A stretch of 64,000 nucleotides of DNA from a phage, in the sequence record OZ346205.1. One strand, 5' to 3'. This document shows positions 46 through 13,633 of the stretch, one piece after another. Positions within the stretch are counted from its first letter, which is position 1. Each line of letters starts with the position of its first letter. The notes under the pieces are model-generated. The model was not told the origin of the DNA. It was given only the letters and a program-made list of their open reading frames with translations, and did no database searches. The translations under genes were made by a program, and so were the position numbers.

Positions 46-732
46 ATGGCAGAGATTAAGTCGGATGTTAACCACATCCACACTCTGCCAGATTTTGTTC
101 AGGGAGGTCTTGACTACCTACCTGGAGATTTTCTGGCTGAGAAGGTTAATTTAGTCACATTCTTAACCGTATACCTTAAAAGGTTGGAGGATGTTGATAA
201 GATGCTGGTAGGTTTGGCTGAAGGAAGATTGCTTAACAATGCCAGCGGAAGATACCTTGACGAAGTTGGTAATCAACTTGGTATTCTTAGGAATGGACTT
301 TCAGATGCTGATTTTCGTGCCACACTAATTATTCAGCAGGCCGCAGCATCAAGGGGCGGGACTCGCGAAGATGTCATCTCCACCTTGCGACAATTGTTCG
401 GAAGAGACAATTTCGATACGTGGAAAGGAGACAACTTCAGGTTTGACATAAATATTAGAAAAACTTGCTTTGACATATTGCAGTCTATCGATCAGATCTT
501 AGATATGCTACCATTGCCTTGTCATTTGCGTCTTACAGAATCGCAAGGGCAAGCTTTTGGTTTTGAAGGGGACTCTACAGCTCTGGGCTTCGGATCAGTG
601 TGGGAAGAAAACCAATTCGGAGTTGGTGGGCTGGCTACTTTGCTATATGTTCCTGACGTAAGACCTGATTGGGACACCACAACCATTTATTGTGAAAGTA
701 TTACAGTAAACGCAACTAGACAGGAGGGTTAA
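46..732 (+). CDS. hypothetical virion-module protein (228 aa)
   Basis: Track ORF; first gene of a co-directional structural block; no motif recognised. Confidence 0.5.
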   Translation: MAEIKSDVNHIHTLPDFVQGGLDYLPGDFLAEKVNLVTFLTVYLKRLEDVDKMLVGLAEGRLLNNASGRYLDEVGNQLGILRNGLSDADFRATLIIQQAAASRGGTREDVISTLRQLFGRDNFDTWKGDNFRFDINIRKTCFDILQSIDQILDMLPLPCHLRLTESQGQAFGFEGDSTALGFGSVWEENQFGVGGLATLLYVPDVRPDWDTTTIYCESITVNATRQEG

Positions 733-2804
733 TGGCAACAGCTGTTTTTAAACCTTACCGTGATTACTCTACAATGGCTGCACAGTTTCATTACCGCACA
801 GTTCAGGATACTGCCGTTCCTGGTAGAGATTATGATCATGTTGAGGGCGATGTAACTATCCCAGTTGGGGCAACCAGTATTGAGATCCCAGTGGAAATTG
901 TTGACAAATTACCCAACAGGTTGCCAAGAAGCTTCTTTATGGAGTTTTCATCAAAATCTCAAGGAGTGATGATTGGAACACAAAGGGCGAAATGTACAAT
1001 AGTTTCAGATGAGAATCTTGACAGGATATCTTGGGATACTGTTGAGGAGAGAATGTTTCACCCAAGATATTGGGTTACAACCACTCAGCAGACTGAAAGT
1101 ACCTGTATTGTTGCAGATAACAACTGTTGTATTAACCGTTTAGTGTCAAGAACATATGGAGGTATGGCTGGGTGCATTTGGGAAACAGTTGACAAGTATG
1201 ACCATTTCGGTATTGGGTTTGATGATCACTATGAGATGAGAAACACCAAGCTTTGGTTCAGAATGTCAATAACCAACGCCAGCAACTTCTCCACTCCTGA
1301 AAAGATGATTATGACTGTAGACCTTGTTGATGGCACAATCATCTATGTTCCTTTAGCTCAATATGCTGTCAGCATCTCAGAGGATAAAAATGTTGCAGAA
1401 ATTCATATTGATTTTGAGGACTGCGTCGGGATGGACCAGAACAACAACATGATGGGTGTTGATCCTCGGCAGGTGAGAAGGATTTTAATACCACTTATGC
1501 CTAAAGACTGGGTAAGTAATAGCACAGATCCAAGAACGGAAAATGTAGAGTGTGAGTTGCGCCTAGATCTGCTTCAGCCAGACACAGGCTGGAAAATGAT
1601 GCAACTTAATAATATCCAGGTGAGAGAGCACGACGTTGGGATCTGCACCGCATATGACGATATGTGGAACGTGTCCCCTTTAAGGGTGTTGAACAATATC
1701 AAGCGTCTGGGCTATACCGGAACCATAAACCATTATGTTGGTATGAGTCATTATTATGACTACACATGGTCAGGAACCCAATGGTCTATAAACAGAACAG
1801 GAGCGCTAAACGCTGCAGCTTATAAATGGCATGATGATTTTATGTACAATGCCAAACGACATAACTTCGACGTTATGCAATCTGTAAGTTTTGAGCTTTT
1901 CAGCGATGCCTGCCCGTTGGAATGGACCCAAAGAGACTGGAACGATAACTACGCTAAAACAGGGTATACACCTTGTAGCTACCTCCTGTCTCCAACCATT
2001 GAAGAGGGTATGAATTTCCTTACTGCAGTATTTAAGAATTTTGCATCAGCCGCTATGAGAAACAACCTGCCAGTGATTATGCAGGTTGGTGAACCGTGGT
2101 GGTGGTACAATACCGATACTCGTAGACCTTGTATTTATGATTACCCTACAAAACAGGCGTTTTATGATGAGACAGGCGAGTATGCATTAGATATTGGGAC
2201 TATTGACGATCCTAAAACTGGCGGTGTTTACGATAAGTATGTAGCATTTTGTCGTGGTAAGCTTGGCGCTCGTATTGCGGCTATTTCAAAGGCAATAAAG
2301 GCACACGCTGCATCAGCTCAGATGACAGCTCTGCTGTTTTTCCCAACCATTATGGAAACCGAGCTTACGCAAAAGCTTAACCTTGCTGACCAATATAAAA
2401 AGGAAGCAGGTGCTCTTGATTTCTTCTGCACCGAGTGCTACGATTGGGTGATGCAGGGAGGTATTGAAAAGGCAAAAGAGTCTGTAAACATACCTATCGT
2501 TAAGTTAGGTTGGCAACCGTCTGAAATACAATACCTTGCAGGGTTCGTTCCTAGTAAAGAGCTTGCTCCGGTATATGGTTACGACCCAACCAGGAATTAC
2601 CAAGAATTTTTATGGAGATGTATTTGCGGAAACATGGCAACTATAGAGTATAGATATCCTGAGGTAAAACAGTATGTGTGGGCATACCCGCAAGTAATGT
2701 CTGACAGCATCACTGTTACCGCTAGAGATTCTACCGTGCTTCATATGGGGCAGGTTGCTCTGAAAGGGTATGTAGAAGATGTTGTCCCGCCAGACTTCTC
2801 ATAA
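732..2804 (+). CDS. hypothetical structural protein (690 aa)
   Basis: Track ORF; start overlaps upstream stop (ATGA-type coupling); no motif recognised. Confidence 0.55.
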   Translation: MATAVFKPYRDYSTMAAQFHYRTVQDTAVPGRDYDHVEGDVTIPVGATSIEIPVEIVDKLPNRLPRSFFMEFSSKSQGVMIGTQRAKCTIVSDENLDRISWDTVEERMFHPRYWVTTTQQTESTCIVADNNCCINRLVSRTYGGMAGCIWETVDKYDHFGIGFDDHYEMRNTKLWFRMSITNASNFSTPEKMIMTVDLVDGTIIYVPLAQYAVSISEDKNVAEIHIDFEDCVGMDQNNNMMGVDPRQVRRILIPLMPKDWVSNSTDPRTENVECELRLDLLQPDTGWKMMQLNNIQVREHDVGICTAYDDMWNVSPLRVLNNIKRLGYTGTINHYVGMSHYYDYTWSGTQWSINRTGALNAAAYKWHDDFMYNAKRHNFDVMQSVSFELFSDACPLEWTQRDWNDNYAKTGYTPCSYLLSPTIEEGMNFLTAVFKNFASAAMRNNLPVIMQVGEPWWWYNTDTRRPCIYDYPTKQAFYDETGEYALDIGTIDDPKTGGVYDKYVAFCRGKLGARIAAISKAIKAHAASAQMTALLFFPTIMETELTQKLNLADQYKKEAGALDFFCTECYDWVMQGGIEKAKESVNIPIVKLGWQPSEIQYLAGFVPSKELAPVYGYDPTRNYQEFLWRCICGNMATIEYRYPEVKQYVWAYPQVMSDSITVTARDSTVLHMGQVALKGYVEDVVPPDFS

Positions 2805-2816
2805 TCAGGAGATAAA

Positions 2817-3857
2817 ATGTCAAAACCTAGTTTTCCATTAGAGATTTGGGCAGAGGAGGATCAGGTTCTGCCTAACACCCACAGACAGAACAGGCTACGC
2901 CCGATTGATGATTTGTGGAGAAAAGGTTGGGATCTTGGTCAAAAGCCCTCATGTGAAGAACTTAACTATATTTTCAATATGCTCGGGACTTGGGCAAAAT
3001 ACATCGCTGACGAGCAGATCCCCGCTCAAGAAGGCCGTTATCTGGTACGTGATAATAACTTGAGTGATCTTTTGAACATTCCTGTTGCCCGTAGAAACCT
3101 TGGGATTATTACTAAGGAAGAGGCAGACGCCAGGTATGTAAAAGTTACAGGTGATACAATGACAGGCCCATTGGGTTTGCAACGTATCAACTTTAAAGCT
3201 GCCGAGTCAGATAAGGCTTGGATAGAGACAACTATTGGCCCAGATAAGACAACTCTCGACTTTGGGTTAAGTGATAATACCGGGTCGTTTGATGATGGTG
3301 GTACATCTACAGTGGATGCGTTCCGTTGGAGATTCCAGCCAACTCAGCCGGATATTAATCCAGAGTTCACTTTGATGTACCTTAACGCGATCACGGCTAA
3401 CCGTGCGCTGTTGAAAGTGGTAGGCAATGTTGAAGTTGTCGATAACATGAGGTGCAATAACCTTACTATCAGCAATACAGCGACATTCACCAACTGTAAT
3501 GTGGCTAGTCAGTTGACGGCTGGGTCAGTGTATGTTAATGGTGGTGCAAGTTGTGACAGTATGGTTGTAAGAAGCCAGCACTGTGTTGTCGGTAACAGAA
3601 ATGTGGTTCGCTCTGTGAACGGAGTGACGGCTAACGGTAACGGTGATGTAACGATCACTATCCCGCAGACAGGTGTGCAAGACATCAGAATCGGTGCAAG
3701 ACTTGTGGACGGAGTTTCTGAATCTCCAATCCGCAACGGCTACGTTGTCACAGGCTGGCATTTCGGTGACAAAAAAGAGATGCGTGGTTCAACCTACTGG
3801 GCAGGACCTTTACAAAAACTTGTAAATGGTCAATGGATCACTGTTAATTATGCATAG
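2817..3857 (+). CDS. tail fibre / receptor-binding protein, paralogue 1 (346 aa)
   Basis: Shares N-terminus (P..IWA..D.VL.NT...GW) and C-terminus (KLVNGQWIT.NYA) with the ORF at 4872-5915; divergent middle; RBS GGAGA upstream. Confidence 0.6.
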   Translation: MSKPSFPLEIWAEEDQVLPNTHRQNRLRPIDDLWRKGWDLGQKPSCEELNYIFNMLGTWAKYIADEQIPAQEGRYLVRDNNLSDLLNIPVARRNLGIITKEEADARYVKVTGDTMTGPLGLQRINFKAAESDKAWIETTIGPDKTTLDFGLSDNTGSFDDGGTSTVDAFRWRFQPTQPDINPEFTLMYLNAITANRALLKVVGNVEVVDNMRCNNLTISNTATFTNCNVASQLTAGSVYVNGGASCDSMVVRSQHCVVGNRNVVRSVNGVTANGNGDVTITIPQTGVQDIRIGARLVDGVSESPIRNGYVVTGWHFGDKKEMRGSTYWAGPLQKLVNGQWITVNYA

Positions 3858-3871
3858 ATCGGAGGACTAGC

Positions 3872-4456
3872 ATGAAAATACTTCAAGAGTTTAAACTTTA
3901 CCAACCGGGATCTGGCGAATACCGCACCAACAAGGAAACCAAGGAGCTGACCCCTCAAGAGGTTGAGGATTACACAGCATACACTGGGTATTTTTTACGT
4001 AATGATGATGGCGATTGGTATGTGCAGTCACGAACATTACGACAAGAAAATCCGGGGTGTATCTTCCTACTTGTTGACGAGAAGGGAATTCTTAAGACAT
4101 CTACAGAAGAACCTGATGCCTTATGGCCTGCTCCAGGTCTTCGTGTGGTTATCGCCAAAAAAGAAGAGGTACCAGAAAACATTATGCTTCACCACGACGC
4201 TTTGCGTTTAGTTGGTGATGAATTTGTCACAGACAATGAATTCTTTGTTCAACAGGCAGAGGGTGTCATAGAGACAGAACTTGCTTGGGCTACTGCTAGA
4301 ATTGGTGCCTATCAAGACATGATTGACCTTGAATATGATCTTACTGATGACCAGAAACGTAACATCAGAGATTTGAAAATGTACAGGGTAAAACTTCTTG
4401 AAATAGATACATCTAAAGCCCCTGACATTTTCTTCCCGGAGCGACCTACCCTCTAA
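3872..4456 (+). CDS. hypothetical protein (194 aa), possibly fibre-associated
   Basis: Track ORF between the two fibre paralogues; function inferred from position only. Confidence 0.45.
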   Translation: MKILQEFKLYQPGSGEYRTNKETKELTPQEVEDYTAYTGYFLRNDDGDWYVQSRTLRQENPGCIFLLVDEKGILKTSTEEPDALWPAPGLRVVIAKKEEVPENIMLHHDALRLVGDEFVTDNEFFVQQAEGVIETELAWATARIGAYQDMIDLEYDLTDDQKRNIRDLKMYRVKLLEIDTSKAPDIFFPERPTL

Positions 4457-4467
4457 GAGGAGGTGTT

Positions 4468-4782
4468 GTGGAGTTGGATTTGGCGGCATTGTACGGTATC
4501 TGCATGGGTACCGTTGTCCCGATCTGTGTATGGGCTTTCAACCAGTGGCACACCAAATGGAAAGGCATTTCCAAGAGGTTGGATGAACTGGAGAAAGACC
4601 TCATCTTAGTGAAAAACAGTATGGTTACAAAAGATAAACTTGATTCCGTTATCGAGACCCGGTTAAGTAAGCTAGAGGCCGATATTAACGACCTTAAGCA
4701 GGATGTCAGGACAGATGTCTCCGGTATCCGAGCTGATGTACAAAAGATTTTGCACATGCTCGTAGAGCATAGTAAAAGGTAA
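4468..4782 (+). CDS. hypothetical membrane/coiled-coil protein (104 aa)
   Basis: GTG start after RBS AAGAGGAGG; hydrophobic N-terminus then a charged heptad-like segment. Confidence 0.45.
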   Translation: MELDLAALYGICMGTVVPICVWAFNQWHTKWKGISKRLDELEKDLILVKNSMVTKDKLDSVIETRLSKLEADINDLKQDVRTDVSGIRADVQKILHMLVEHSKR

Positions 4783-4871
4783 ACAAAGGTCAGAACGGAA
4801 AGGACTCTGTTCTTGCATTTTGTTCCCTAAAGTGTTAAAATAGTCCTAAGGAATTTTCTCAGGAGAACGTG

Positions 4872-5915
4872 ATGACTAAACCAGTTATCCCTCTTGATAT
4901 TTGGGCCAATCAGGATGTTGTGCTTGAAAATACGGGAGAGTTGAATAAGTCTCAACCAAAAAAAGAAGAGAGATTGAAAGGTTGGGATATGACACAAAGA
5001 GTGGCATGTGAAGTTGTTAACTTTGAACTTCACATGCTTTCTGCGTGGTTGAAGCATTTAACAGAAGATGTTGTCCCAGGATGGGATAATAGATTCTTAA
5101 GGGTCACTAATAATCTAGCAGACGTTCCAGACAAAGCTGCTGCACGTCAAGTTCTCAATGTATACTCACCTGAAGAAATGGACGATCTATATGTTGACAA
5201 GTCTGGAGACATAATGACTCAGACTCAAACTTTAGGTCTTCAAAGAATCGAGTTTGCATCTGCGTCAACAGACAGTGCGGCAATATATACCACCATAACT
5301 CCAGACAAGACGACGATGGATTTCTGGATTATGGACAACATCGGTGGTGCTGACGGCACAGACCTTGATGATCCTTCTCACCAAATAGATGGGTTCCGTT
5401 GGAGATTTCAACCTTCTGGTGGGCAGCCTGTGTTTTCAGCTATGAAGCTCAATGCTATAACTGCCAACCGTGCAAGACTGGCTATCCAAGGAAATCTTGA
5501 ATGCAACGATGCAAAAAGTTCCTCTGCAAATGCCAATGCGGTCACGATACCAAGAGCCACTGTTAATGGACAACAATCCTGCGGAAGCGCTCAAATAGGT
5601 GGAAGAGTTGATTGTAACGATGAAACCGTCAGGGGCCAATATGCAACAGTTGGTGGAAGAAACGTGGTCCGCAGGGTAAATGGTAACGGCGCAGACAGTA
5701 GTGGTAACCTTACTATTCCTATGCCTAGCAGAGGGGTTGATGATGTAAGGATAGCAAACCGTTTCAAAACCACCTACAGAGAGTCAAGAGTCTACCCTGG
5801 ACATGTGATGTGCTCTGGTAACTACGCTTATAAACACCCTTATCAAGGTGATTACTGGACAGGTGCTATCCAAAAACTTGTAAATGGTCAATGGATCACT
5901 ATATCTTATGCTTAA
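4872..5915 (+). CDS. tail fibre / receptor-binding protein, paralogue 2 (347 aa)
   Basis: ATG at 4872 after AGGAGA; conserved termini shared with 2817-3857. Confidence 0.6.
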   Translation: MTKPVIPLDIWANQDVVLENTGELNKSQPKKEERLKGWDMTQRVACEVVNFELHMLSAWLKHLTEDVVPGWDNRFLRVTNNLADVPDKAAARQVLNVYSPEEMDDLYVDKSGDIMTQTQTLGLQRIEFASASTDSAAIYTTITPDKTTMDFWIMDNIGGADGTDLDDPSHQIDGFRWRFQPSGGQPVFSAMKLNAITANRARLAIQGNLECNDAKSSSANANAVTIPRATVNGQQSCGSAQIGGRVDCNDETVRGQYATVGGRNVVRRVNGNGADSSGNLTIPMPSRGVDDVRIANRFKTTYRESRVYPGHVMCSGNYAYKHPYQGDYWTGAIQKLVNGQWITISYA

Positions 5916-5926
5916 AAAGAGGGTAA

Positions 5927-6193
5927 ATGAAACTAACTCAGTTTTTATGGGGACTGGTTGCGGCATCTGATGACCCTACGAAAGTATCCCAAACTAAGCT
6001 ATGGTCGAACATAGGCATGGCGGTGATGACTGGGGTGTTTATTCATATGGGGTATAATGATACGCTTCCTGAATGGTATGCGTGGATATACGCGCCTTCA
6101 GTAGCTTGCCCCCAGCTTATTAGCAAATTCATCTCGCTCCGGTGGGGTTGCCAGCACCCTGACCACGTTAAAAACGAAGAGCAAAAAGCTTAA
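5927..6193 (+). CDS. hypothetical protein (88 aa)
   Basis: Track ORF with RBS GAGGG upstream; no motif. Confidence 0.4.
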   Translation: MKLTQFLWGLVAASDDPTKVSQTKLWSNIGMAVMTGVFIHMGYNDTLPEWYAWIYAPSVACPQLISKFISLRWGCQHPDHVKNEEQKA

Positions 6194-6202
6194 GGAGAAA
6201 TC

Positions 6203-7948
6203 ATGGCGCAAGACATGACAAGCTTTGAGCAGGCGGTAGATCAAGTAATTGTTGATTCTGAACGTTTGCACCTGATTGTCAACGGTAACGCTGTGGATGA
6301 AGTTGTCGTAGAGGATGGGACCACCATCCCTACGGTACGAAAAGCCATGCTTGACACCCTTTATTTTAAAACGCCACCGATCCCTTGGGCGTATGGTGCA
6401 TCCACAACAGTTTTTAACCAGCTGTACGAGTTTAAAGGGGACACAGGCCCTCAGTGGTGGTACGCTCCCGCAGCATCAAAATCTAACCCGGTTAGAATGC
6501 CAGCAGATCCTTCACAATCTCCAAACTGGAGATTATATACCGATTCTGCAGTAATGGCAAAATACTACGCAAAACTTAACAGTCCGAGGTTCGAAGGTGA
6601 CCCGCGAGTACCTACGCCTCCAATGGACGACAAATCCGAGTCTATAGCAAACACAGAGTTTGTTGTTGACTATGTGGATAGCATATTTGAAGCCATGGAG
6701 GGAATGAAAGTTACTGTAGGGTCTTTGGTGGTAAAAGGTCTTACAGAACTTGCTAACACTATAGTTGGTGGCACACTCACCTTACATGGGCCTGTTAATG
6801 GAGCAGATTCTACTGCACGCTTCAGGAACCTAATCCTCACGGCAAATACTTCTACACTTACTTTTGCGTGGAGTGATCCTAAGCATGCAGACTGGAGAAG
6901 CACAGAGCTGCAACCTCATGAAGTGTCCACCCACAGGGTTATAGCTGACACTATAACTTCTGGGAAACCAGTGGCTAATAATAACGATGTGCATTTTGAT
7001 GGTCTAGGTAATAACTTTTTTGACTACGTGTACATTCGTGGTAATGCCATGAAGGCAGCAACCGAACCGACATTGCAGGTAGATGGAACCACCAGGGTTA
7101 AGAACCTTGAGGTGACAGGCACTGTTACAGGGATAACATACTCTGTCGATGGCACCATGATCTACCCTAGCTATATTGAAAGCACGGGTGATGCATTGAT
7201 AAATGGCGATTTGGAGGTTGGCGGGTCTGTAGTTATTCGAGGTACAGCCTCTATCCAAAATATAGCTCTGAATACTCTAAGAGTCAATGAGCGTGCAACT
7301 TTTGAAGGAGAAGGGCTTACAGCCAATAAAGGTACAATTACCGAGCTGACCACCACCACTTTAACTGCAACAACTGCAAACTCTGAAAACTGCAACATTA
7401 CCAGAAACTTGCAGGTAAATGGAGATGTTAGTTTAAACGCCGCAGGGACTGGCACCACCTACCTTCACAATCTTGAAATATCCGGCACAGTGACCGGATG
7501 GCTGCCAGACTTCTCTAATGTCAACTTTGTCTGTAATGGCATTAACTCCAGTGGTAAGATAACCACCTCTCAAGAAATTGAGGCTGGTAAAACCATCACT
7601 GCCCCTACTTTCCACGCAGGAAAGGTAGATTTTGACTTAGAGGAGGTTGACGCGTCCAGTGGGACATGGACACCTAACGGGCAGGCCAGTATGTATGTTG
7701 TCCACGCTAAAGGGGATTTTACAATAGGTCAGTGGCCTGGGACATCAGCGGAAGATAAACCTTATCCATTCACTGCAGTTATCTATGTCATTCAGGATGC
7801 TGTAGGTCACAACGTGACTTTGCACGATAAGTATGCTATCCTGTCGGCAACACCTGTTATTAACAACAGGGCTAACAGTGTTACCTTGCTGCAATTAACG
7901 TATTGTGGTGTTGGTGATATTGTAGACGTAGTAATTGCACAACGTTAA
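6203..7948 (+). CDS. tail fibre / spike-like structural protein (581 aa)
   Basis: Long Thr/Gly/Asn-rich repetitive beta-type sequence typical of fibre shafts; position in the fibre module. Confidence 0.55.
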   Translation: MAQDMTSFEQAVDQVIVDSERLHLIVNGNAVDEVVVEDGTTIPTVRKAMLDTLYFKTPPIPWAYGASTTVFNQLYEFKGDTGPQWWYAPAASKSNPVRMPADPSQSPNWRLYTDSAVMAKYYAKLNSPRFEGDPRVPTPPMDDKSESIANTEFVVDYVDSIFEAMEGMKVTVGSLVVKGLTELANTIVGGTLTLHGPVNGADSTARFRNLILTANTSTLTFAWSDPKHADWRSTELQPHEVSTHRVIADTITSGKPVANNNDVHFDGLGNNFFDYVYIRGNAMKAATEPTLQVDGTTRVKNLEVTGTVTGITYSVDGTMIYPSYIESTGDALINGDLEVGGSVVIRGTASIQNIALNTLRVNERATFEGEGLTANKGTITELTTTTLTATTANSENCNITRNLQVNGDVSLNAAGTGTTYLHNLEISGTVTGWLPDFSNVNFVCNGINSSGKITTSQEIEAGKTITAPTFHAGKVDFDLEEVDASSGTWTPNGQASMYVVHAKGDFTIGQWPGTSAEDKPYPFTAVIYVIQDAVGHNVTLHDKYAILSATPVINNRANSVTLLQLTYCGVGDIVDVVIAQR

Positions 7949-7996
7949 TATATCTAACCGCTCCTGACGGGGCGGTTTTCTTATCTGGAGAACACA

Positions 7997-10900
7997 ATGC
8001 TTCCAATCCCTTTGCTAAAACTTGGTCGTCATTTCCTCGATAAGAGGGGTGGAATTAAGGAACTTGCTGTTCTGTCATACCCAATAGACAACAGTGATGG
8101 TACAAGCAACACAGTATCCTATGTAAATAGCTTGGCTATACTTTTTGATGATGGTCAGCTTAATATTACGGGCTATAACAAGTTCGGGGAGTGTCGCACT
8201 GGGGATCGTAACCCTATAAACTACCCAAGCGAAACAGCCTGGAATGTTGATCATGTGTGGAGAGCAGACCGTGCGTTTGTGATCCGGACTTTTGATAACC
8301 AGTTTTTCTACATCGGCTGCACTGCAGGTCTTATCGGATCCACTGCGGCAGGCGGTAATGATGTTTGCGTAAACGAGTGGACACCTCTTCCGGAACAGAT
8401 TGTTAAAGGGTTGCACCTTGACACCCACCCAGAGCGCCTTATTGAGGTGATGGGTGGTATTAACAACACTGTCTGGGTTATTGCAGAGGCAGAAGGCACT
8501 GGCATACTTAAACTATATGGATCTGGTAACAACACCTACGGATCTTTGCATGTAGATAAAAATCAGCATGCAACCCCTGTAAAGATTGGTGAGACATCGG
8601 AAAATCCGGAAACAGGTCCTTGGAAAAACCCAAGCATCAACTGCGAGGTGCATGACAACTCTGTTATTTTCGGTGGTCCTAGAGGCTTCTGGATTGCTGG
8701 ATACGACTTTCTAAGAAATAACAGTAGAAACGACCTTGTTTGGCCTCCTGTGCAGATTACTCGTAACGATTTGAGGGGCATTCCTGCAGATGAAGAGTGG
8801 AAAGGGTTTATGTGCGGTCCTAACGGGGCAATAATTGCCACACAGAGGATGCACAAACCAAATGACCAGCAGCTTGTTAACGTATTCTACGGGCAAGACG
8901 TTTGGGGAGATGACACGTGGCGTTCCTTAAATATCACCTACACCCATGAGGTGATAATGGCTCGTGGATACGGCACAAGTGGCATTTTCTTCAATAATGG
9001 CACTAAACAGTATCGTGGATTCTCTCGCAACTTGTGTAATGATATTGGTGCACAATCTGCAAACAATAGCCCTAGGGCTAATTTTATCCACTATCAGGCT
9101 CTTGCTACAGCTAAATATGTTGAGCAACGCCTGCCAGTTAGCTGGACAGAGAGTGTTTATTTCCAAGGCATCCACAGGGAAGGTTTCTTAGGAACCTTTA
9201 CTGTTGTTAATGGCAAACTTTGGTGGTCAGGCATCCCAAGGGGGAGTTTTGCAGGATCTAACAACCTCTTTGGCGGCAGACTTAACAGCCAAGGGTTCAC
9301 AGAGATTCCGGAGAATTGGTATAAAAATGTCCCGGTAGATAGCTGGGGTATCGAAGACATCTTTGATGTCAATGGTGTGAGCAATGTTAGCAACATTTAC
9401 ATCGGAGATACTGTCAAGATGAAATTGAAACCTCAGCCGGAGGGTGCTACGTTCATTATTGACAAGATTGAGTTGGTAAATGCTGCAGGCACTGTTGTTA
9501 CAGATGCAAACTATCAGTTCTCCACTAACTGGAACCATGGTGGTGCTAACGAAGTTGTGGTCACCCAGTATAACCGTAACATCAACAGACGTGGTTTGTA
9601 TTCTATCAAGATCACCTACCATGACAAGCATGGCACTGGAAGAACCTATACGACAAGAACTTTGAACTGGAACACTATAGTTCCTGCGTATCCGTCCAAC
9701 GGCAAGTGGCATACCGTTGGTAGAAACAAGCAGTTCCATGTTAACGATACTGTATACTTTGGGCTGAATGGGACCCAGCCTGCAGTAGAAGGGGATACAT
9801 CGTATATGGTCAGACTCCACAGAATGGATGCTGGATCAGTCACTTATGATGTGACCCAAGAGATCTACGATCAAAGACGTGCCACGTATGACAATATTGT
9901 AAAAACACAAGCCTTGTGGGAGTTCAATCCTAATGGCAAGGGTGGTAAAATGTTGCAGGTTAATGAGCAGAACGGAACGTCGTTGACTGTTCACGAACAC
10001 CCAGACCCTTGGCCTGATCCTGGAAAACCTCGCCCGGGAGCTCGTACACTGAAAATTGTCAGCCATGATGCAGGATATTTCGGAATACGCTGGGAAGCTA
10101 CAGTAAGATATGTCGACGGGACAACAAACAACATAGGGATTACACTTGGCGGCACTAGTGAAGATAACTCGCTGAAAATTGCCTACACGCCCAGAGGTAT
10201 CTCTATTGATAGTATGGATGTTGTTCGCAATGGCTACGGCGATGTGAATGTCAAAGTTACTCTTGGCGAACATCTTGGTGGGGAAAGGATCATCATGTAT
10301 ACCTTTGATCATGATCCACGCACCAATGGAACTTATGCAAATCAGGCATGGAGTTACCTGATAAATGCACCTGAGCCGAATACTAAAGAGTTCTACTATG
10401 GTATGAAGCGAGATGTGTGCAAGAAAACAGGAACACATGACTGGATTGCTATCTGCGTTAAAGATGAGCGCACAGCTTGGGATGAGCCTGTTAACAGATG
10501 GTTCATAGGTATTCCTACCAGAAGTGATAAGTATGTCGCAGAATATATTGTATGCATGGGCGGTACCAACCTAAACATGTGTTGGAACGAAGATGTAAAC
10601 AAATACTCTGATTATGACTATATGAGGGATTACTCTTGTAATTTGTGGTTTAACCAAACTACAGGTTACCCTCCAAGACAGGCGAGAGTAAACCCTGCAA
10701 TCTTCACAGACACGCAGGTTTTCTTGACAAAACAGGCCAACGAGGTTCAGACCTTCAAGAATAAATACGCTCCTAACAAGTGGTTCTACAACTGTTACGG
10801 CGCATTTTTCTGGGGACCTGGTGAGTTACCTGGTGGGGGATCTTGCTTGAATGAGGCAACTTACGCAAGTGACTACATCATGGGGCAGGTCAAGAAGTAT

Positions 10901-13633
10901 AAGATAATCCCCGGTCCTGAGACTTTGGGCAATGCCGTTGACCCTTATATCATCATGACTGCACTGAGATCAAACATGGATGGGACATCCATGTCCATGC
11001 AAATTCCGGTAACAAACGGATACAAACGTGTTGTGATGATCATTAAGTGCGACCTGATAGGTAAACAAGTTCTTGCAGAAAACGGGACATCCACACATCC
11101 TTTTGAGATCGCTCTGCACTATCAGTTTGCTGACTCACCTTTTGCAGGGGATAAGAGAATATCTGATACAGACGCACAGCGTTGTAAGAAAGTATTGTTG
11201 GGTGCAGGTTGGTGGTGGTATGAGTTTGATTTAACAGACAAATTCACCGACACGTCTAAAGTTGTAACAGGACTTCGTCTAGACCTTGGCGAGAACATGC
11301 ACAAAGCTGTTTGTGATGGCACCTATGGTGACCCTACAATATACCTAAAATATGTTTCTTTTGAGCATCCGGAAGATGTTGTCTACGGTCCAAAACTGAG
11401 ATTGTTTGGCAGCTGGATTGCAAAAGATAGGGTAGGCATGGGTAAGAAGGTAAGAGGGCTCTTGGTTGATGCAGGAACAGAAGACATGCTGGTTAATGCA
11501 GTGTGGCCTGAATTACCTGGGACTCAGTGGGACAACTCAGCCAAATCTATAAACTGGTTTAACATTCATAGGGCCATGTGGACCACTAACTGCTACTTGT
11601 GGAGAGAGCTTAACGATCAGGCCTTTGGATTCAGCGATGGTAGAAGGATGGCGATCATTTGCTGGACAACACTGCAAAGATGTTATGACCATGACTATGA
11701 GATTGGGGGCAGGGCATGGAAAAATATCAGGGATAGAATCATAACCAATTTTGCAGACGACAACGGTGGTGGAGCACATAACTTTGGCACAAGCCGACTC
11801 ATCCATTTGAACGGATCCTCAGCCTACAAGAAAGAAGGTTACTCTGGGTCTATGATCGAGTGGGGTCTGGTGAAAGATGCTCGCGTATTGATGGGCCAGC
11901 AACTTGCTGCCGCAATAGGTCCCAGCGCAGTGCAGTCGGTTAAACCAGCGTGGTTCGATATTCCATTGTGGTCACCCGGAACACCGGGAACTGCTGCAAT
12001 CAACCCTACCACTGGGGATCTAGAAATCTCCTGGGAGGACTTGAAGCAGGTCGGTGGTTGGGACAAAACAGGGTACCAGGTTCAGTGGTGGAGAGCTGAT
12101 GGATCTTTAGCTGCTGATGAGTTTGTTAAGGACAATTTCTACACTATGTCCTCTGCAAAAGCACAGCAATTATTTGGTCAGGCAACTCCGTCAACGATCA
12201 CCATGTCTATGTGCTGTAAAGACAACAGGACTGGAGCTTTGGGGCCAAGGGTTGCTAAAGTTTTCTCAGGTATTAAATGGAATCTACCTGTCCAAAGTAT
12301 TTCATGGAAGCAAATAGGTGATAACAAGCTGCTGGTTACCCCTGCCTGTCAGTTCAACGCAACTCTTAACGTTGATCCTGCTGTTGCGGCAAACTCAGCT
12401 AAAGCTTCTGACTTCTCTGTGTCTAACACTGCTATGGCAGATGTGAGGAAGATTGACACGCTGAACGCCAGAATTACCTGTAAAAACACTTATGGCACAT
12501 TCCAGATCATCAACAACTTCACAGATGCTGATTCTAAGGTAGTGAGGACAGCAAGCCAGACTTTGAGTTTAGGAACTCTGGCCTATGCGGCCCTAATCAC
12601 TGAACAGTCGGCAACACTCCAAGGAGGTGGTGTAGGCAAGTCCATTACAACACCTGTGTGGAAGCCAAATGAGTGGGTTGTGTTTGATTTGACTGTGGAC
12701 TTCTCCAGCGATAATAACTGGACATGGGTAAGGAATTGTTTGTCACAGTTGATGGGCGGTCCAAGCTCCGTTAGTGATAGTCACGACTCTACTGACCCGA
12801 GTGTGTTCCAGGTAGGTAAAACTCACCCAGAGACTGGAGAAACGTTGCCTGACAGGAAGTATGCTTTGGTTTGCATCTCTTACGGGAAGGCAGATGTCAC
12901 CTTCTCAGGGACACACACTTATAACGGAACCTACAACTTCTCAAGGAAGTATAGTCTCAAAGCAGGGAACATTATAGACGAGGTTGGTGTGCTGTATAAT
13001 CCGGGCAACGGCATAGGGATTGTTGGTGGTAAACTGCAGATGCAGGAACCTTCTATTACCCCTTCCAACGTATCCGGGATTAGAAAGACTTGGGAAAGTA
13101 GTAATACCAACATTGCAACAGTGGATGCCACCACAGGACTGGTAACATTTAAAGCTACTGGGAATGTCACCATAAAGTTTGTAGTTACAGATGATGCAGG
13201 GCGCAAAACGTCTTCAACATCTTTTACTGTCAAACAGATGGCACCACAGTGGAGAATGTGGATAGGTACAGCAACAAACGGGGCATACCCTAATCCGGCA
13301 GGTACTTCTGGTATGAAGACTTTCTCTACAAGCAAACCGATGGAGTACGGCAGCGGTCCTAAGGTAGGGCAGATGGTGTACTTTGGTGCGTATATTCCTG
13401 AAATTATAGGGCTTCCGAGAAGTCAGCTTCAGTTGCTGTTTGGGGCTGGTGTTGACGATCTTGCCACTTTCGGGTATAGCGACAACATCGAGGCTGCAAG
13501 GAGTTCAGGATGGGTAGGGTTCAGAATGGAGTCTGGAAAGGAAGGCAGGATTCTAGGGACAGCCTCTATAGGTGTTATGTTCCCTGGTGACCAGCAGTAT
13601 CGTCTAGAAGCCTACGCAACCTTTTCTCGTTAA
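7997..13633 (+). CDS. giant virion protein with Ig-like (Big_2) domain (1878 aa)
   Basis: Uninterrupted 5.6 kb ORF; C-terminal segment ...NIATVDATTGLVTFKATGNVTIKFVVTDDAGRK... matches the Big_2 pattern. Confidence 0.65.
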   Translation: MLPIPLLKLGRHFLDKRGGIKELAVLSYPIDNSDGTSNTVSYVNSLAILFDDGQLNITGYNKFGECRTGDRNPINYPSETAWNVDHVWRADRAFVIRTFDNQFFYIGCTAGLIGSTAAGGNDVCVNEWTPLPEQIVKGLHLDTHPERLIEVMGGINNTVWVIAEAEGTGILKLYGSGNNTYGSLHVDKNQHATPVKIGETSENPETGPWKNPSINCEVHDNSVIFGGPRGFWIAGYDFLRNNSRNDLVWPPVQITRNDLRGIPADEEWKGFMCGPNGAIIATQRMHKPNDQQLVNVFYGQDVWGDDTWRSLNITYTHEVIMARGYGTSGIFFNNGTKQYRGFSRNLCNDIGAQSANNSPRANFIHYQALATAKYVEQRLPVSWTESVYFQGIHREGFLGTFTVVNGKLWWSGIPRGSFAGSNNLFGGRLNSQGFTEIPENWYKNVPVDSWGIEDIFDVNGVSNVSNIYIGDTVKMKLKPQPEGATFIIDKIELVNAAGTVVTDANYQFSTNWNHGGANEVVVTQYNRNINRRGLYSIKITYHDKHGTGRTYTTRTLNWNTIVPAYPSNGKWHTVGRNKQFHVNDTVYFGLNGTQPAVEGDTSYMVRLHRMDAGSVTYDVTQEIYDQRRATYDNIVKTQALWEFNPNGKGGKMLQVNEQNGTSLTVHEHPDPWPDPGKPRPGARTLKIVSHDAGYFGIRWEATVRYVDGTTNNIGITLGGTSEDNSLKIAYTPRGISIDSMDVVRNGYGDVNVKVTLGEHLGGERIIMYTFDHDPRTNGTYANQAWSYLINAPEPNTKEFYYGMKRDVCKKTGTHDWIAICVKDERTAWDEPVNRWFIGIPTRSDKYVAEYIVCMGGTNLNMCWNEDVNKYSDYDYMRDYSCNLWFNQTTGYPPRQARVNPAIFTDTQVFLTKQANEVQTFKNKYAPNKWFYNCYGAFFWGPGELPGGGSCLNEATYASDYIMGQVKKYKIIPGPETLGNAVDPYIIMTALRSNMDGTSMSMQIPVTNGYKRVVMIIKCDLIGKQVLAENGTSTHPFEIALHYQFADSPFAGDKRISDTDAQRCKKVLLGAGWWWYEFDLTDKFTDTSKVVTGLRLDLGENMHKAVCDGTYGDPTIYLKYVSFEHPEDVVYGPKLRLFGSWIAKDRVGMGKKVRGLLVDAGTEDMLVNAVWPELPGTQWDNSAKSINWFNIHRAMWTTNCYLWRELNDQAFGFSDGRRMAIICWTTLQRCYDHDYEIGGRAWKNIRDRIITNFADDNGGGAHNFGTSRLIHLNGSSAYKKEGYSGSMIEWGLVKDARVLMGQQLAAAIGPSAVQSVKPAWFDIPLWSPGTPGTAAINPTTGDLEISWEDLKQVGGWDKTGYQVQWWRADGSLAADEFVKDNFYTMSSAKAQQLFGQATPSTITMSMCCKDNRTGALGPRVAKVFSGIKWNLPVQSISWKQIGDNKLLVTPACQFNATLNVDPAVAANSAKASDFSVSNTAMADVRKIDTLNARITCKNTYGTFQIINNFTDADSKVVRTASQTLSLGTLAYAALITEQSATLQGGGVGKSITTPVWKPNEWVVFDLTVDFSSDNNWTWVRNCLSQLMGGPSSVSDSHDSTDPSVFQVGKTHPETGETLPDRKYALVCISYGKADVTFSGTHTYNGTYNFSRKYSLKAGNIIDEVGVLYNPGNGIGIVGGKLQMQEPSITPSNVSGIRKTWESSNTNIATVDATTGLVTFKATGNVTIKFVVTDDAGRKTSSTSFTVKQMAPQWRMWIGTATNGAYPNPAGTSGMKTFSTSKPMEYGSGPKVGQMVYFGAYIPEIIGLPRSQLQLLFGAGVDDLATFGYSDNIEAARSSGWVGFRMESGKEGRILGTASIGVMFPGDQQYRLEAYATFSR

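Follow-up and report, generated by a model that had tools for sequence, protein, structure and literature searches.

The window, by which we mean the whole stretch of DNA analysed here (64,000 nt of sequence record OZ346205.1), comes from a Vequintavirus, an rV5-like E. coli phage with 99.6% identity to phage AlexBoehm/Bas56. The locus under study holds two short tail fibre genes with two small genes between them, in the following arrangement.

2817..3857, + strand: short tail fibre paralogue 1 (STF1; rV5 gp33), 346 aa; phrog_4465, E 2e-171.
3813..3842, + strand: 30-nt run encoding QKLVNGQWIT at the 3' end of paralogue 1, identical to 5871-5900.
3872..4456, + strand: tail fibre assembly chaperone Tfa (rV5 gp32), 194 aa; PF02413 Caudo_TAP, phrog_136.
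4468..4782, + strand: 104-aa protein (rV5 gp31) that combines a membrane helix at the N-terminus with a coiled coil; phrog_5345, a family of unknown function, E 1e-48.
4792..4813, + strand: weak terminator-like hairpin, purely a pattern match from a consensus scan; 8-bp stem including 3 G-C pairs, T-rich tail.
4872..5915, + strand: short tail fibre paralogue 2 (STF2; rV5 gp30), 347 aa; phrog_4465, E 4.8e-166.
5871..5900, + strand: 30-nt counterpart of 3813-3842, identical to it, at the 3' end of paralogue 2.
5927..6193, + strand: 88-aa membrane protein (rV5 gp29), conserved beside the fibre genes and given as context; phrog_1322, E 1e-32.

At this locus, two Bas56 genes are annotated as 'short tail fiber protein' and one as 'tail fiber chaperone'. 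Paralogue 1 corresponds to rV5 gp33 (Bas56_0034) and paralogue 2 to gp30 (Bas56_0037), with 344 of 346 and 344 of 347 residues identical to the rV5 proteins, respectively, and the same gene order and sizes. The fibre pair is thus real but not new: both short tail fibres, which are of the Mu type, and the assembly chaperone encoded between them had been described before. Kropinski 2013 reported 42.3% identity between rV5 gp30 and gp33 and speculated that two LPS chemotypes might be recognised (PMC3606486). According to Maffei 2021, the short tail fibres are a pair of paralogues accompanied by a chaperone, with homology to Mu GpS/GpU (PMC8594841). The paralogy, the chaperone, the Mu homology and the two-chemotype idea are therefore already in print. 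Absent from the published accounts are the asymmetry of the N-terminal joints, the concerted evolution of the 3' ends and an L012-type lineage in which the two tips are similar. The details added here are the strong purifying selection on both copies, the restricted distribution of the two-copy layout and the 3' ends evolving in concert.

Both proteins match phrog_4465 along their whole length (residues 1-346 and 1-347, profile positions 1-342 of 342 in each case). Paralogue 2 starts with an ATG at 4872, preceded 6 nt upstream by AGGAG. Aligned by BLASTP over their full length, the two proteins are identical at 152 of 356 positions (43%, E 7e-94), far beyond chance, which bears out the preliminary description of two paralogous tail-fibre genes. 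Its account of the two small intervening genes was likewise accurate, including the layout of the second, whose product has a hydrophobic helix at approximately residues 5-24 (Kyte-Doolittle 19-residue maximum of 1.91 at 5-23) followed by heptad-rich sequence. The C-terminal tails KLVNGQWITVNYA and KLVNGQWITISYA are nearly identical, as stated there. Peptides specific to each paralogue are AWIETTIGPDK (paralogue 1) and VNGNGADSSGNLTIPMPSR (paralogue 2).

The similarity along the two fibres, however, does not follow the proposed pattern of conserved termini and a divergent middle. Identity is 60% over residues 1-20, 40% over residues 1-70 as a whole and 25-30% over residues 51-100. It reaches 52-53% in the middle (residues 116-205, with windows up to 65%), is 25-29% over residues 206-260 and 54% over residues 261-295, and then stands at 20% over residues 296-325 and 71% over residues 326-346. 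The beta-helical shafts are 25-32% identical. Divergence therefore occupies three separate stretches, and the centre is among the best-conserved blocks.

Structural homologues were found for both ends of paralogue 1. Residues 1-108 match the short tail fibre of phage phiTE (9cuy_c, E 1.4e-19), and residues 286-343 match residues 440-501 of Mu S (5yvq_A) at E 2e-6, or 2.6e-4 for the tip alone. For paralogue 2, residues 1-83 match 9cuy_c clearly more weakly (E 1.2e-9), and its tip gave no match to Mu S in the PDB sequence search, so that the link runs only through the alignment with paralogue 1 and through the family. Monomer AlphaFold2 models of both paralogues were of low confidence (pLDDT 62 and 60); they were used for one Foldseek search and support just an overall Mu-like domain order. 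The sole significant Foldseek match of paralogue 1 was 5yvq_A, the Mu fibre-chaperone complex (E 2e-6). By homology to Mu S and phi92 gp147, the receptor-facing part would be the C-terminal tip (approximately residues 296-346), of which only the last strand is common to both paralogues. The idea of a receptor-facing middle thus lacks support, given the conservation of that region and the homology of the tip.

We built trees for three domains separately. In the N-terminal tree, paralogue 2 forms a clade outside all single-copy fibres with 98% bootstrap support. The paralogue-2 clade departs from the family at 10 near-invariant positions within residues 1-62, whereas the paralogue-1 clade departs at none, and the two paralogues are 37-40% identical over residues 1-70 in all three lineages compared. 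These results speak against a shared attachment interface, which had been suggested from the N-terminal similarity. Paralogue 1 lies after the baseplate wedge genes and directly 5' of the Tfa gene. Paralogue 2 is located two genes further along, without a Tfa gene of its own and with the 88-aa membrane protein gene next downstream. In rV5-type lineages, its tip is 41% identical to that of paralogue 1. Taken together, trees and alignments indicate that paralogue 1 retains the ancestral N-terminal joint and the ancestral tip of the Mu S and phi92 gp147 type, and that paralogue 2 is the derived, faster-evolving copy, in which joint and tip have both diverged. An extra docking domain was sought in the wedge protein of two-copy phages, and none was seen. 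In Bas56, the wedge proteins are Bas56_0031/0032. The wedge protein of phage Av-05 is short, which looks like the result of a mis-called start codon.

The Tfa gene starts 15 nt after the end of paralogue 1 and is the only chaperone gene in the locus. Its product matches Pfam PF02413 (Caudo_TAP) with 45.8 bits (cut-off 22.1; E 8.5e-12) and phrog_136 at E 2.4e-36. A sequence search of the PDB returned only noise and no match to Mu GpU, so family membership rests on Pfam. Synteny between the gene for the 104-aa protein and the Tfa gene also holds in Av-05 and in phi92 (gp149), and the predicted hairpin sits in the 89-nt gap 5' of paralogue 2. The 88-aa protein and phi92 gp144, compared without formal alignment, are similar in size and membrane annotation and have a central motif in common.

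The 3' ends of the two fibre genes are more alike than their proteins require. The 30-nt perfect run lies inside a 62-nt repeat that is 84% identical between the genes, and a run of this length has a probability of ~5e-4 given the amino-acid sequences and codon usage of the genes. In the lineage L009, the two copies agree with each other at 29 of the 30 nt, and the run differs between L009 and the window lineage at three synonymous sites. These patterns indicate that the last ~30 nt of both genes evolve in concert. The final strand takes the forms NYA/SYA and QTL. Together with what is known of the chaperone family, the concerted evolution of the final strand suggests that Tfa would bind the tip and that fibre folding would depend on it. 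The earlier suggestion of a shared assembly interface is very probably correct, given the single Caudo_TAP chaperone gene and a C-terminal strand held alike by concerted evolution.

Both fibre genes are full-length and free of gaps in the five most diverged records, with dN/dS of 0.03-0.07 at dS up to 0.56. Separate values were 0.03 for paralogue 1, 0.05-0.07 for paralogue 2, 0.03-0.05 for Tfa, 0-0.04 for the 104-aa protein and 0.02-0.04 for the 88-aa protein. Decay of one copy was considered and rejected, because neither gene is truncated and dN/dS does not exceed 0.07 in either; at the sequence level, the preliminary description is therefore not refuted by the degeneration of one paralogue in relatives, which it had named as counting against it. 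Close copies of paralogue 2 (at least 90% identity) occur only in 117 Vequintavirus-like phage records, and two metagenomic relatives were the only carriers of the two-copy layout outside Vequintavirus. The gene order of STF1, Tfa, 104-aa protein, STF2 and small membrane protein is also present in diverged metagenomic lineages.

An exchangeable or switchable cassette, comparable to the Mu G segment or the P1 C segment, or a hotspot of horizontal swapping, would imply that one fibre is used at a time. This idea draws on Mu S/U and S'/U', the nearest relatives known, which alternate by DNA inversion, and on the mosaic tip module of paralogue 1, whose residues 287-345 share 57-61% identity with fibres found in phAPEC8-like phages and in ~52 kb myoviruses. 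However, the + strand carries both genes, no inverted repeat within 2700-6300 is longer than one of 18 nt with 83% identity, and no invertase is annotated within 27 kb around the Bas56 locus. Moreover, the entire 3.1-kb locus is present at 92% identity or more in 114 of the 117 records, in line with the lack of allelic variation in short fibres between Vequintavirus genomes (Maffei 2021, PMC8594841). Because the locus is nearly invariant, carries its genes on one strand and has no flanking inverted repeats, we rejected the switch or cassette as highly improbable, and inversion is effectively refuted.

All tested Vequintavirus phages require the same LPS-core sugar (glucose-I dependence), which on K-12 gives no hint that a second specificity exists, and a literature search for host-range mutants mapping to the fibre genes found none. 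Dual LPS specificity has been published as speculation for rV5 gp30/gp33 (PMC3606486). The two tips of the L012 lineage share 88% identity, and therefore two copies can persist without different tips; the reason for keeping two may thus not be receptor breadth. Both fibres might instead bind one receptor and be kept for structural reasons, with each at its own position on the baseplate or in the fibre network (6 + 6 fibres, for instance), or with paralogue 2 mounted on another fibre, so that the key difference would lie in the joint rather than in the tip. The equal divergence of the joint in three lineages, the changes of paralogue 2 at family-invariant sites, its well-supported N-terminal clade, the L012 tips and the common glucose-I dependence all agree with this, as does an unassigned density attached to the head of the Vequintavirus fibre class TC8 in RBPseg cryo-EM. 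On the other hand, the rV5-type paralogue 2 tip has diverged beyond a Mu S match yet is 94% identical between the window and L009, and this conservation between lineages suggests a distinct selected function. A single short-fibre density has been described so far, and the wedge protein of two-copy phages lacks an extra domain. We consider this purely structural explanation rather unlikely.

Evidence from virions is less strong than the wording of the rV5 paper implies. The text of the rV5 paper states that gp30, gp32 and gp33 were detected by virion mass spectrometry (PMC3606486). Among the 19 loci of the deposited rV5 mass spectrometry table, none of 12 peptide fragments of the two fibres was present. 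In cryo-EM of the Bas54 and Bas49 baseplates at 7-9.5 Å, there is one Mu-like short-fibre density per asymmetric unit, in which the paralogues are indistinguishable; this density fits a single common socket, or a second fibre that is disordered, as well as it fits two sites.

One shared set of six sockets could also carry heterotrimers of both proteins, for example in a 2:1 ratio. The near-equal lengths (346 vs 347 aa), the blocks conserved between the paralogues (116-205, 261-295 and the final strand), the one chaperone gene and the one observed fibre density would suit such an assembly. Known Mu/P2-type and T4-type fibres, however, are homotrimers, and the single-copy relatives function as homotrimers. 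In L012, paralogue 2 has 354 aa against 346 aa in paralogue 1, owing to an insertion of ~8 residues in the mid domain, and the shaft, which needs threefold register, is poorly conserved between the paralogues. Heterotrimers are thus improbable.

The explanation that we favour, and regard as probable, is that the two genes encode co-expressed Vequintavirus short tail fibres of the Mu GpS / phi92 gp147 ('fibre III') class, with a single Tfa folding both. Homology, domain order, the single chaperone gene, purifying selection on both copies, the concerted evolution of the 3' ends and the asymmetry between the copies are its established parts. Each fibre would comprise four parts, namely an N-terminal baseplate joint, a mid domain that is conserved, a beta-helical shaft of variable length in the family and a tip of ~50 residues directed at the LPS core. 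Both genes are transcribed in one direction from the late structural operon, with neither switch nor cassette. The single Tfa would act on both fibres via the common tip scaffold and the final strand, and the final strand may be held alike because one Tfa serves both fibres through it. We infer that paralogue 1 plays the role of phi92 fibre III, docking on the wedge, triggering contraction and binding the LPS outer core at its conserved glucose-I region. Paralogue 2 would form a second set of fibres displayed simultaneously, whose altered tip may broaden or back up LPS-core recognition. The changes in its joint suggest that the docking site is modified or is another one.

A more specific proposal, possible but tentative, is that paralogue 2 does not compete for the baseplate socket of paralogue 1 but is a structurally distinct second fibre with its own docking site, that one chaperone serves both fibres, and that the duplication was fixed for architecture, with tip divergence coming later and in a lineage-specific manner. 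The wedge may provide this site, or else the head of a different fibre, for example of the class with the unassigned attached density. Short-tract gene conversion may keep the last ~10 codons identical, thereby enforcing common chaperone dependence, and receptor divergence of the tip may be present in rV5-type phages and absent in L012.

Phages of the rV5 type are common and infect a broad range of hosts, cocktails for therapy and food safety make use of them, and their short fibres set the last, irreversible step of adsorption. The assignment of the tip, rather than the middle, as the receptor module, together with one chaperone that probably serves both fibres via a strand kept alike by gene conversion, indicates where engineering should cut. 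The location and ligand of paralogue 2 are a modest, testable gap in an otherwise described system.

Compared with rV5 gp33/gp32/gp31/gp30 and the pair in the BASEL Vequintavirus phages, the genes are the same, with no difference in the genes themselves. T4 gp12 is alike in the proposed role, in which fibres on the baseplate attach irreversibly to the LPS core and change orientation when the tail contracts. It relies on a different chaperone, gp57A. The folds also differ, and no gp12 chain appeared in the PDB sequence search (E <= 1) of either paralogue or among the Foldseek matches, making T4 gp12 an analogue rather than a family member; HHpred similarity to it had been reported (Kropinski 2013, PMC3606486). 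The short tail fibre of phiTE (Certrevirus) is homologous in the N-terminal joint, more closely to paralogue 1 than to paralogue 2, and its residues 3-92 have been modelled on wedge protein 1 by cryo-EM (PDB 9CUY chain c; PMC11972413). That fibre differs in being a 554-aa, single-copy gene product of a flagellotropic phage, and in having a long coiled coil as well as distal domains that are Ig-like.

Mu GpS/GpU (PDB 5YVQ, 8JU3) share with the locus a homologous tip (in paralogue 1), the order of folds and a Caudo_TAP chaperone directly downstream. Mu, with S/U and S'/U', and the window phage each have two related fibres directed at the LPS core. Mu, however, expresses one pair at a time by inversion of the G segment and has a chaperone for each fibre, whereas the window phage has co-directional fibres, no inversion apparatus and one chaperone for two fibres. 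In phi92, a single homologue, gp147, forms fibre III, six trimers of which lie under the wedge, point downward and reorient on contraction; they are the proposed irreversible binder and contraction trigger (PMC13450770). Its gene is present in one copy, and its shaft is unrelated (6-23% identity). Nevertheless, gp147 and its Tfa (gp148) follow the wedge genes in the same manner, with Tfa and then a small membrane-anchor/coiled-coil protein after the fibre, and the gp147 tip is 57% identical to that of paralogue 1.

The two fibre ORFs of the preliminary description were both present, and ATG 4872, 6 nt downstream of an AGGAG, is the most likely start of the second (paralogue 2).

Genes and elements discussed (coordinates in the window unless stated; Av-05 is L002 and phi92 is L003)
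732–2804: 690-aa protein with Calx-beta, NCTSP_N and NCTSP TIM-barrel domains (PF23845, E 4e-80), homologous to phi92 gp142
2817–3857, + strand: paralogue 1, 346 aa
3872–4456: Tfa, assembly chaperone, 194 aa
4468–4782: 104-aa protein, directly after the Tfa gene; 7638–7952 in Av-05, 11522–11863 in phi92
4792–4813: weak terminator-like hairpin preceding paralogue 2, by pattern match only
4872–5915, + strand: paralogue 2, 347 aa
5927–6193: 88-aa membrane protein (phrog_1322) following paralogue 2; 7569–7835 in phi92
6203–7948: 581-aa fibre, whose relatives carry Pfam Phage_phiTE_241_N and Phage_phiTE_241_C
Av-05, 7949–8422: 157-aa polytopic membrane protein in the position of paralogue 2, between the 104-aa coiled-coil and 87-aa membrane genes
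Metagenome contig ERZ15185469 NODE_327, 116–3254: two-fibre locus of lineage L012

The two proteins are certain to be paralogues, because they share 43% identity over their full length (BLASTP, E 7e-94). Identity was 60% at residues 1–20 but only 40% over 1–70, with 25–30% in 51–100; it was 52–53% in the block 116–205, 25–29% in 206–260, 54% in 261–295, 20% in 296–325, and 71% in the last 21 residues. The layout originally proposed, conserved termini around a divergent middle, thus holds at the two extremities but not over the N-terminal 70 residues, and given the central block at 116–205, the middle is not the divergent part. The C-terminal likeness reaches the DNA level as a perfect 30-nt run (3813–3842 = 5871–5900) inside a 62-nt repeat, for which P was about 5e-4 given the protein sequences and codon usage.

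The 3.1-kb region was 99.6% identical to Escherichia phage AlexBoehm (Bas56) and matched 117 phage records, nearly all Vequintavirus (rV5-like coliphages), at 92–99% identity. An inversion switch, like the exchangeable cassette suggested earlier, is excluded: the locus is conserved, both fibre genes lie on the + strand, the longest inverted repeat in 2700–6300 is 18 nt at 83% identity, and the Bas56 annotation shows no invertase in 27 kb around the locus. Using tblastn, two places per genome were found only in the 117 Vequintavirus-like records, and every other genus listed had one copy (Av-05, PVP-SE1-like, Klebsiella, Cronobacter and Pectobacterium relatives, and phi92). Both fibre genes were complete and without gaps in the five most divergent Vequintavirus records, with dN/dS of 0.03 for paralogue 1 and 0.05–0.07 for paralogue 2 (dS up to 0.56), and Tfa and both small membrane proteins were under constraint equal to that of the fibres. 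The same five-gene order was kept in two diverged metagenomic lineages, L009 (87% identity to the window for paralogue 1 and 78% for paralogue 2) and L012 (73% and 46%, respectively).

Sixteen records named 'Campylobacter phage', with Campylobacter jejuni as host, were 98–99% identical to the locus and had Vequintavirus-sized genomes (for example MG065635, MG065647, MG065654, MG065655, MG065661, MG065662, MG065666, MG065672, and MG065674). Probably these host labels are in error, or contaminating E. coli supported the growth of the phages.

The tail-fibre family phrog_4465 matched both paralogues end to end. Their N-terminal ~100 residues matched the short tail fibre of Pectobacterium phage phiTE (PDB 9CUY; E 1.4e-19 for paralogue 1 and 1.2e-9 for paralogue 2), in which residues 3–92 form the joint attaching to wedge protein 1, as seen by cryo-EM (PMC11972413). 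Residues 286–343 of paralogue 1 matched the very end of Mu tail fibre protein S (residues 440–501 of 504), and the sole significant Foldseek match of the fibre model, a low-confidence monomer like all our fibre models, was the Mu fibre–chaperone complex 5YVQ. The 194-aa gene between the paralogues encodes a Caudo_TAP assembly protein, scoring above the Pfam cut-off.

In an alignment of 32 family members, the N-terminal ~125 residues, the neck motif VGGRNVVRSVNG..AD..GN and the last strand QKLVNGxW were near-invariant, shaft length varied, and residues about 292–330, within the tip, were hypervariable. Residues 287–345 of paralogue 1 alone showed 57–61% identity to fibres of phAPEC8-like phages and ~52 kb myoviruses, and its tip is a mobile module. 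In Mu, host specificity resides in the alternated fibre–chaperone pairs S/U and S'/U'. Taken together, these observations place the receptor-facing part in the tip rather than in the middle, and the functions first assigned to the regions need correcting.

We then compared the copies at columns whose conservation was 90% or higher across 26 further family members. The clade of paralogue 2 deviated at 15 such columns, 10 of them within residues 1–62 (including P19E, I30K, W34R, Y51F, and Y62H), and the paralogue-1 clade at seven, none in that segment, so the attachment interface is not shared as had been supposed. In a neighbour-joining tree of residues 1–115, the three paralogue-2 sequences formed a clade (98% bootstrap) outside all single-copy fibres, with which paralogue 1 clustered. 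Every outgroup was more distant from paralogue 2 than from paralogue 1, and paralogue 2 had about double the rate of protein evolution. Judged by these deviations, tree, distances and rates, paralogue 1 is the conserved orthologue of phi92 fibre III and paralogue 2 the derived copy, whose attachment domain in particular is unshared.

The main rival explanation holds that the duplication persists for architectural reasons, with a separate docking site, and treats receptor divergence as secondary. The constant N-terminal difference between the paralogues favours it, as does L012 with its two like tips, but only a single cryo-EM density has been described (one Mu-like short-fibre density at 7–9.5 Å in Bas54 and Bas49 baseplates; RBPseg, 2025) and the wedge protein is unchanged. 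The annotated Av-05 wedge protein (2031–3221, 396 aa) lacks the first ~100 residues of its Bas56, L009 and phi92 homologues, an absence that probably reflects a wrongly called start codon, not a genuine truncation.

At the 3′ end, the QKLVNGQWIT-encoding run was identical between the window paralogues at 30/30 nt and common to both L009 copies at 29/30 nt, whereas window and L009 differed at three synonymous positions (CTT/CTG, GTA/GTC, and CAA/CAG). Because the runs are alike within lineages and differ synonymously between them, and because an AAT/AAC polymorphism partly co-varies between copies among Vequintavirus genomes, the likeness is better explained by short-tract gene conversion than by conservation at the nucleotide level. 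The L012 tips were 88% identical to each other and only 63% to the paralogue 1 tip of the window; both copies end in QTL (...ITVQTL) instead of NYA/SYA, and paralogue 2 was nested in the paralogue-1 clade of the tip tree (99% bootstrap). Synonymous sites in these tips were saturated (identical codons, 17/44). Elsewhere, the L012 paralogues shared 37% identity in the N-terminal joint and 39% in the mid domain, where paralogue 2 has an insertion of ~8 residues. The L012 Tfa was only 45% identical to that of the window. The simplest reading is that one Tfa must recognise both fibres, so that in each fibre the tip scaffold and the final strand would co-evolve with this chaperone. In Mu Tfa, a variable N-terminal domain binds the fibre and a conserved C-terminal domain drives trimerisation (summarised in PMC9608196).

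The protein encoded after Tfa (104–113 aa) is common to rV5-like phages, Av-05 and phi92 (gp149, annotated lipoprotein) and begins with a short acidic stretch, followed by a single membrane helix, basic residues and, last, a coiled coil. As the basic residues follow the helix, its sequence suggests a cytoplasmic coiled coil. Purifying selection on it is strong (dN/dS ≤ 0.04), and it fell into no known family, with hits to phrog_5345 (unknown function) and sub-threshold Pfam matches such as XhlA; possible roles are those of an assembly factor tethered to the membrane or of an exclusion protein. The 88-aa protein is also conserved (dN/dS 0.02–0.04) and is resembled by phi92 gp144, whose gene precedes the wedge genes, in size, membrane annotation and a common central motif, as judged without formal alignment. 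The 690-aa protein, whose gene adjoins the short fibres, is likely the primary receptor-binding protein, since a 2026 preprint reports that a tail-fibre protein of this kind binds the N4 glycan receptor in Vequintavirus, based on a short N4 Gp65-like stretch. RBPseg describes TC8, a class of Vequintavirus fibres with a C-terminal head that touches unassigned density.

For rV5, the main text names gp30, gp32 and gp33 among the proteins found by proteomics, the deposited MS table (19 loci; Additional file 5) contained 0 of 12 searched fibre peptide fragments, and Table S3 puts no MS-evidence mark on these genes (PMC3606486). Most likely, late-operon expression yields both fibres, and the single Tfa folds them; heterotrimers of the two paralogues are possible but unlikely. 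Paralogue 1 would most likely act as the fibre-III equivalent on the conserved LPS-core sugar. Paralogue 2 would most likely supply a further set of fibres; in rV5-type phages, its diverged tip would extend or back up recognition of the core.

In Bas56 the four genes carry the annotations short tail fiber protein, tail fiber chaperone, hypothetical protein and short tail fiber protein, corresponding to rV5 gp33, gp32, gp31 (a membrane protein with one transmembrane domain) and gp30. Kropinski et al. (2013, PMC3606486) reported 42.3% identity between gp30 and gp33 and suggested two LPS chemotypes as targets. Maffei et al. (2021, PMC8594841) described a pair of paralogous short tail fibres with a chaperone in Vequintavirinae sensu stricto, related to the single phi92-like locus and Mu GpS/GpU, with no allelic variation of the short tail fibres between genomes. 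Given these reports and RBPseg (2025), the two-fibre feature is real and was correctly spotted, but it is a rediscovery. The added value is modest: the asymmetric N-terminal joint, gene conversion at the chaperone-facing strand, and a lineage with two like tips.

Recent work places gp147 of phi92 in fibre III, a proposed irreversible binder with six trimers below the wedge that point down and reorient on contraction (PMC13450770). This homologue is single-copy, whereas the window has two copies; its tip is 57% identical to that of paralogue 1, but the shafts are unrelated.
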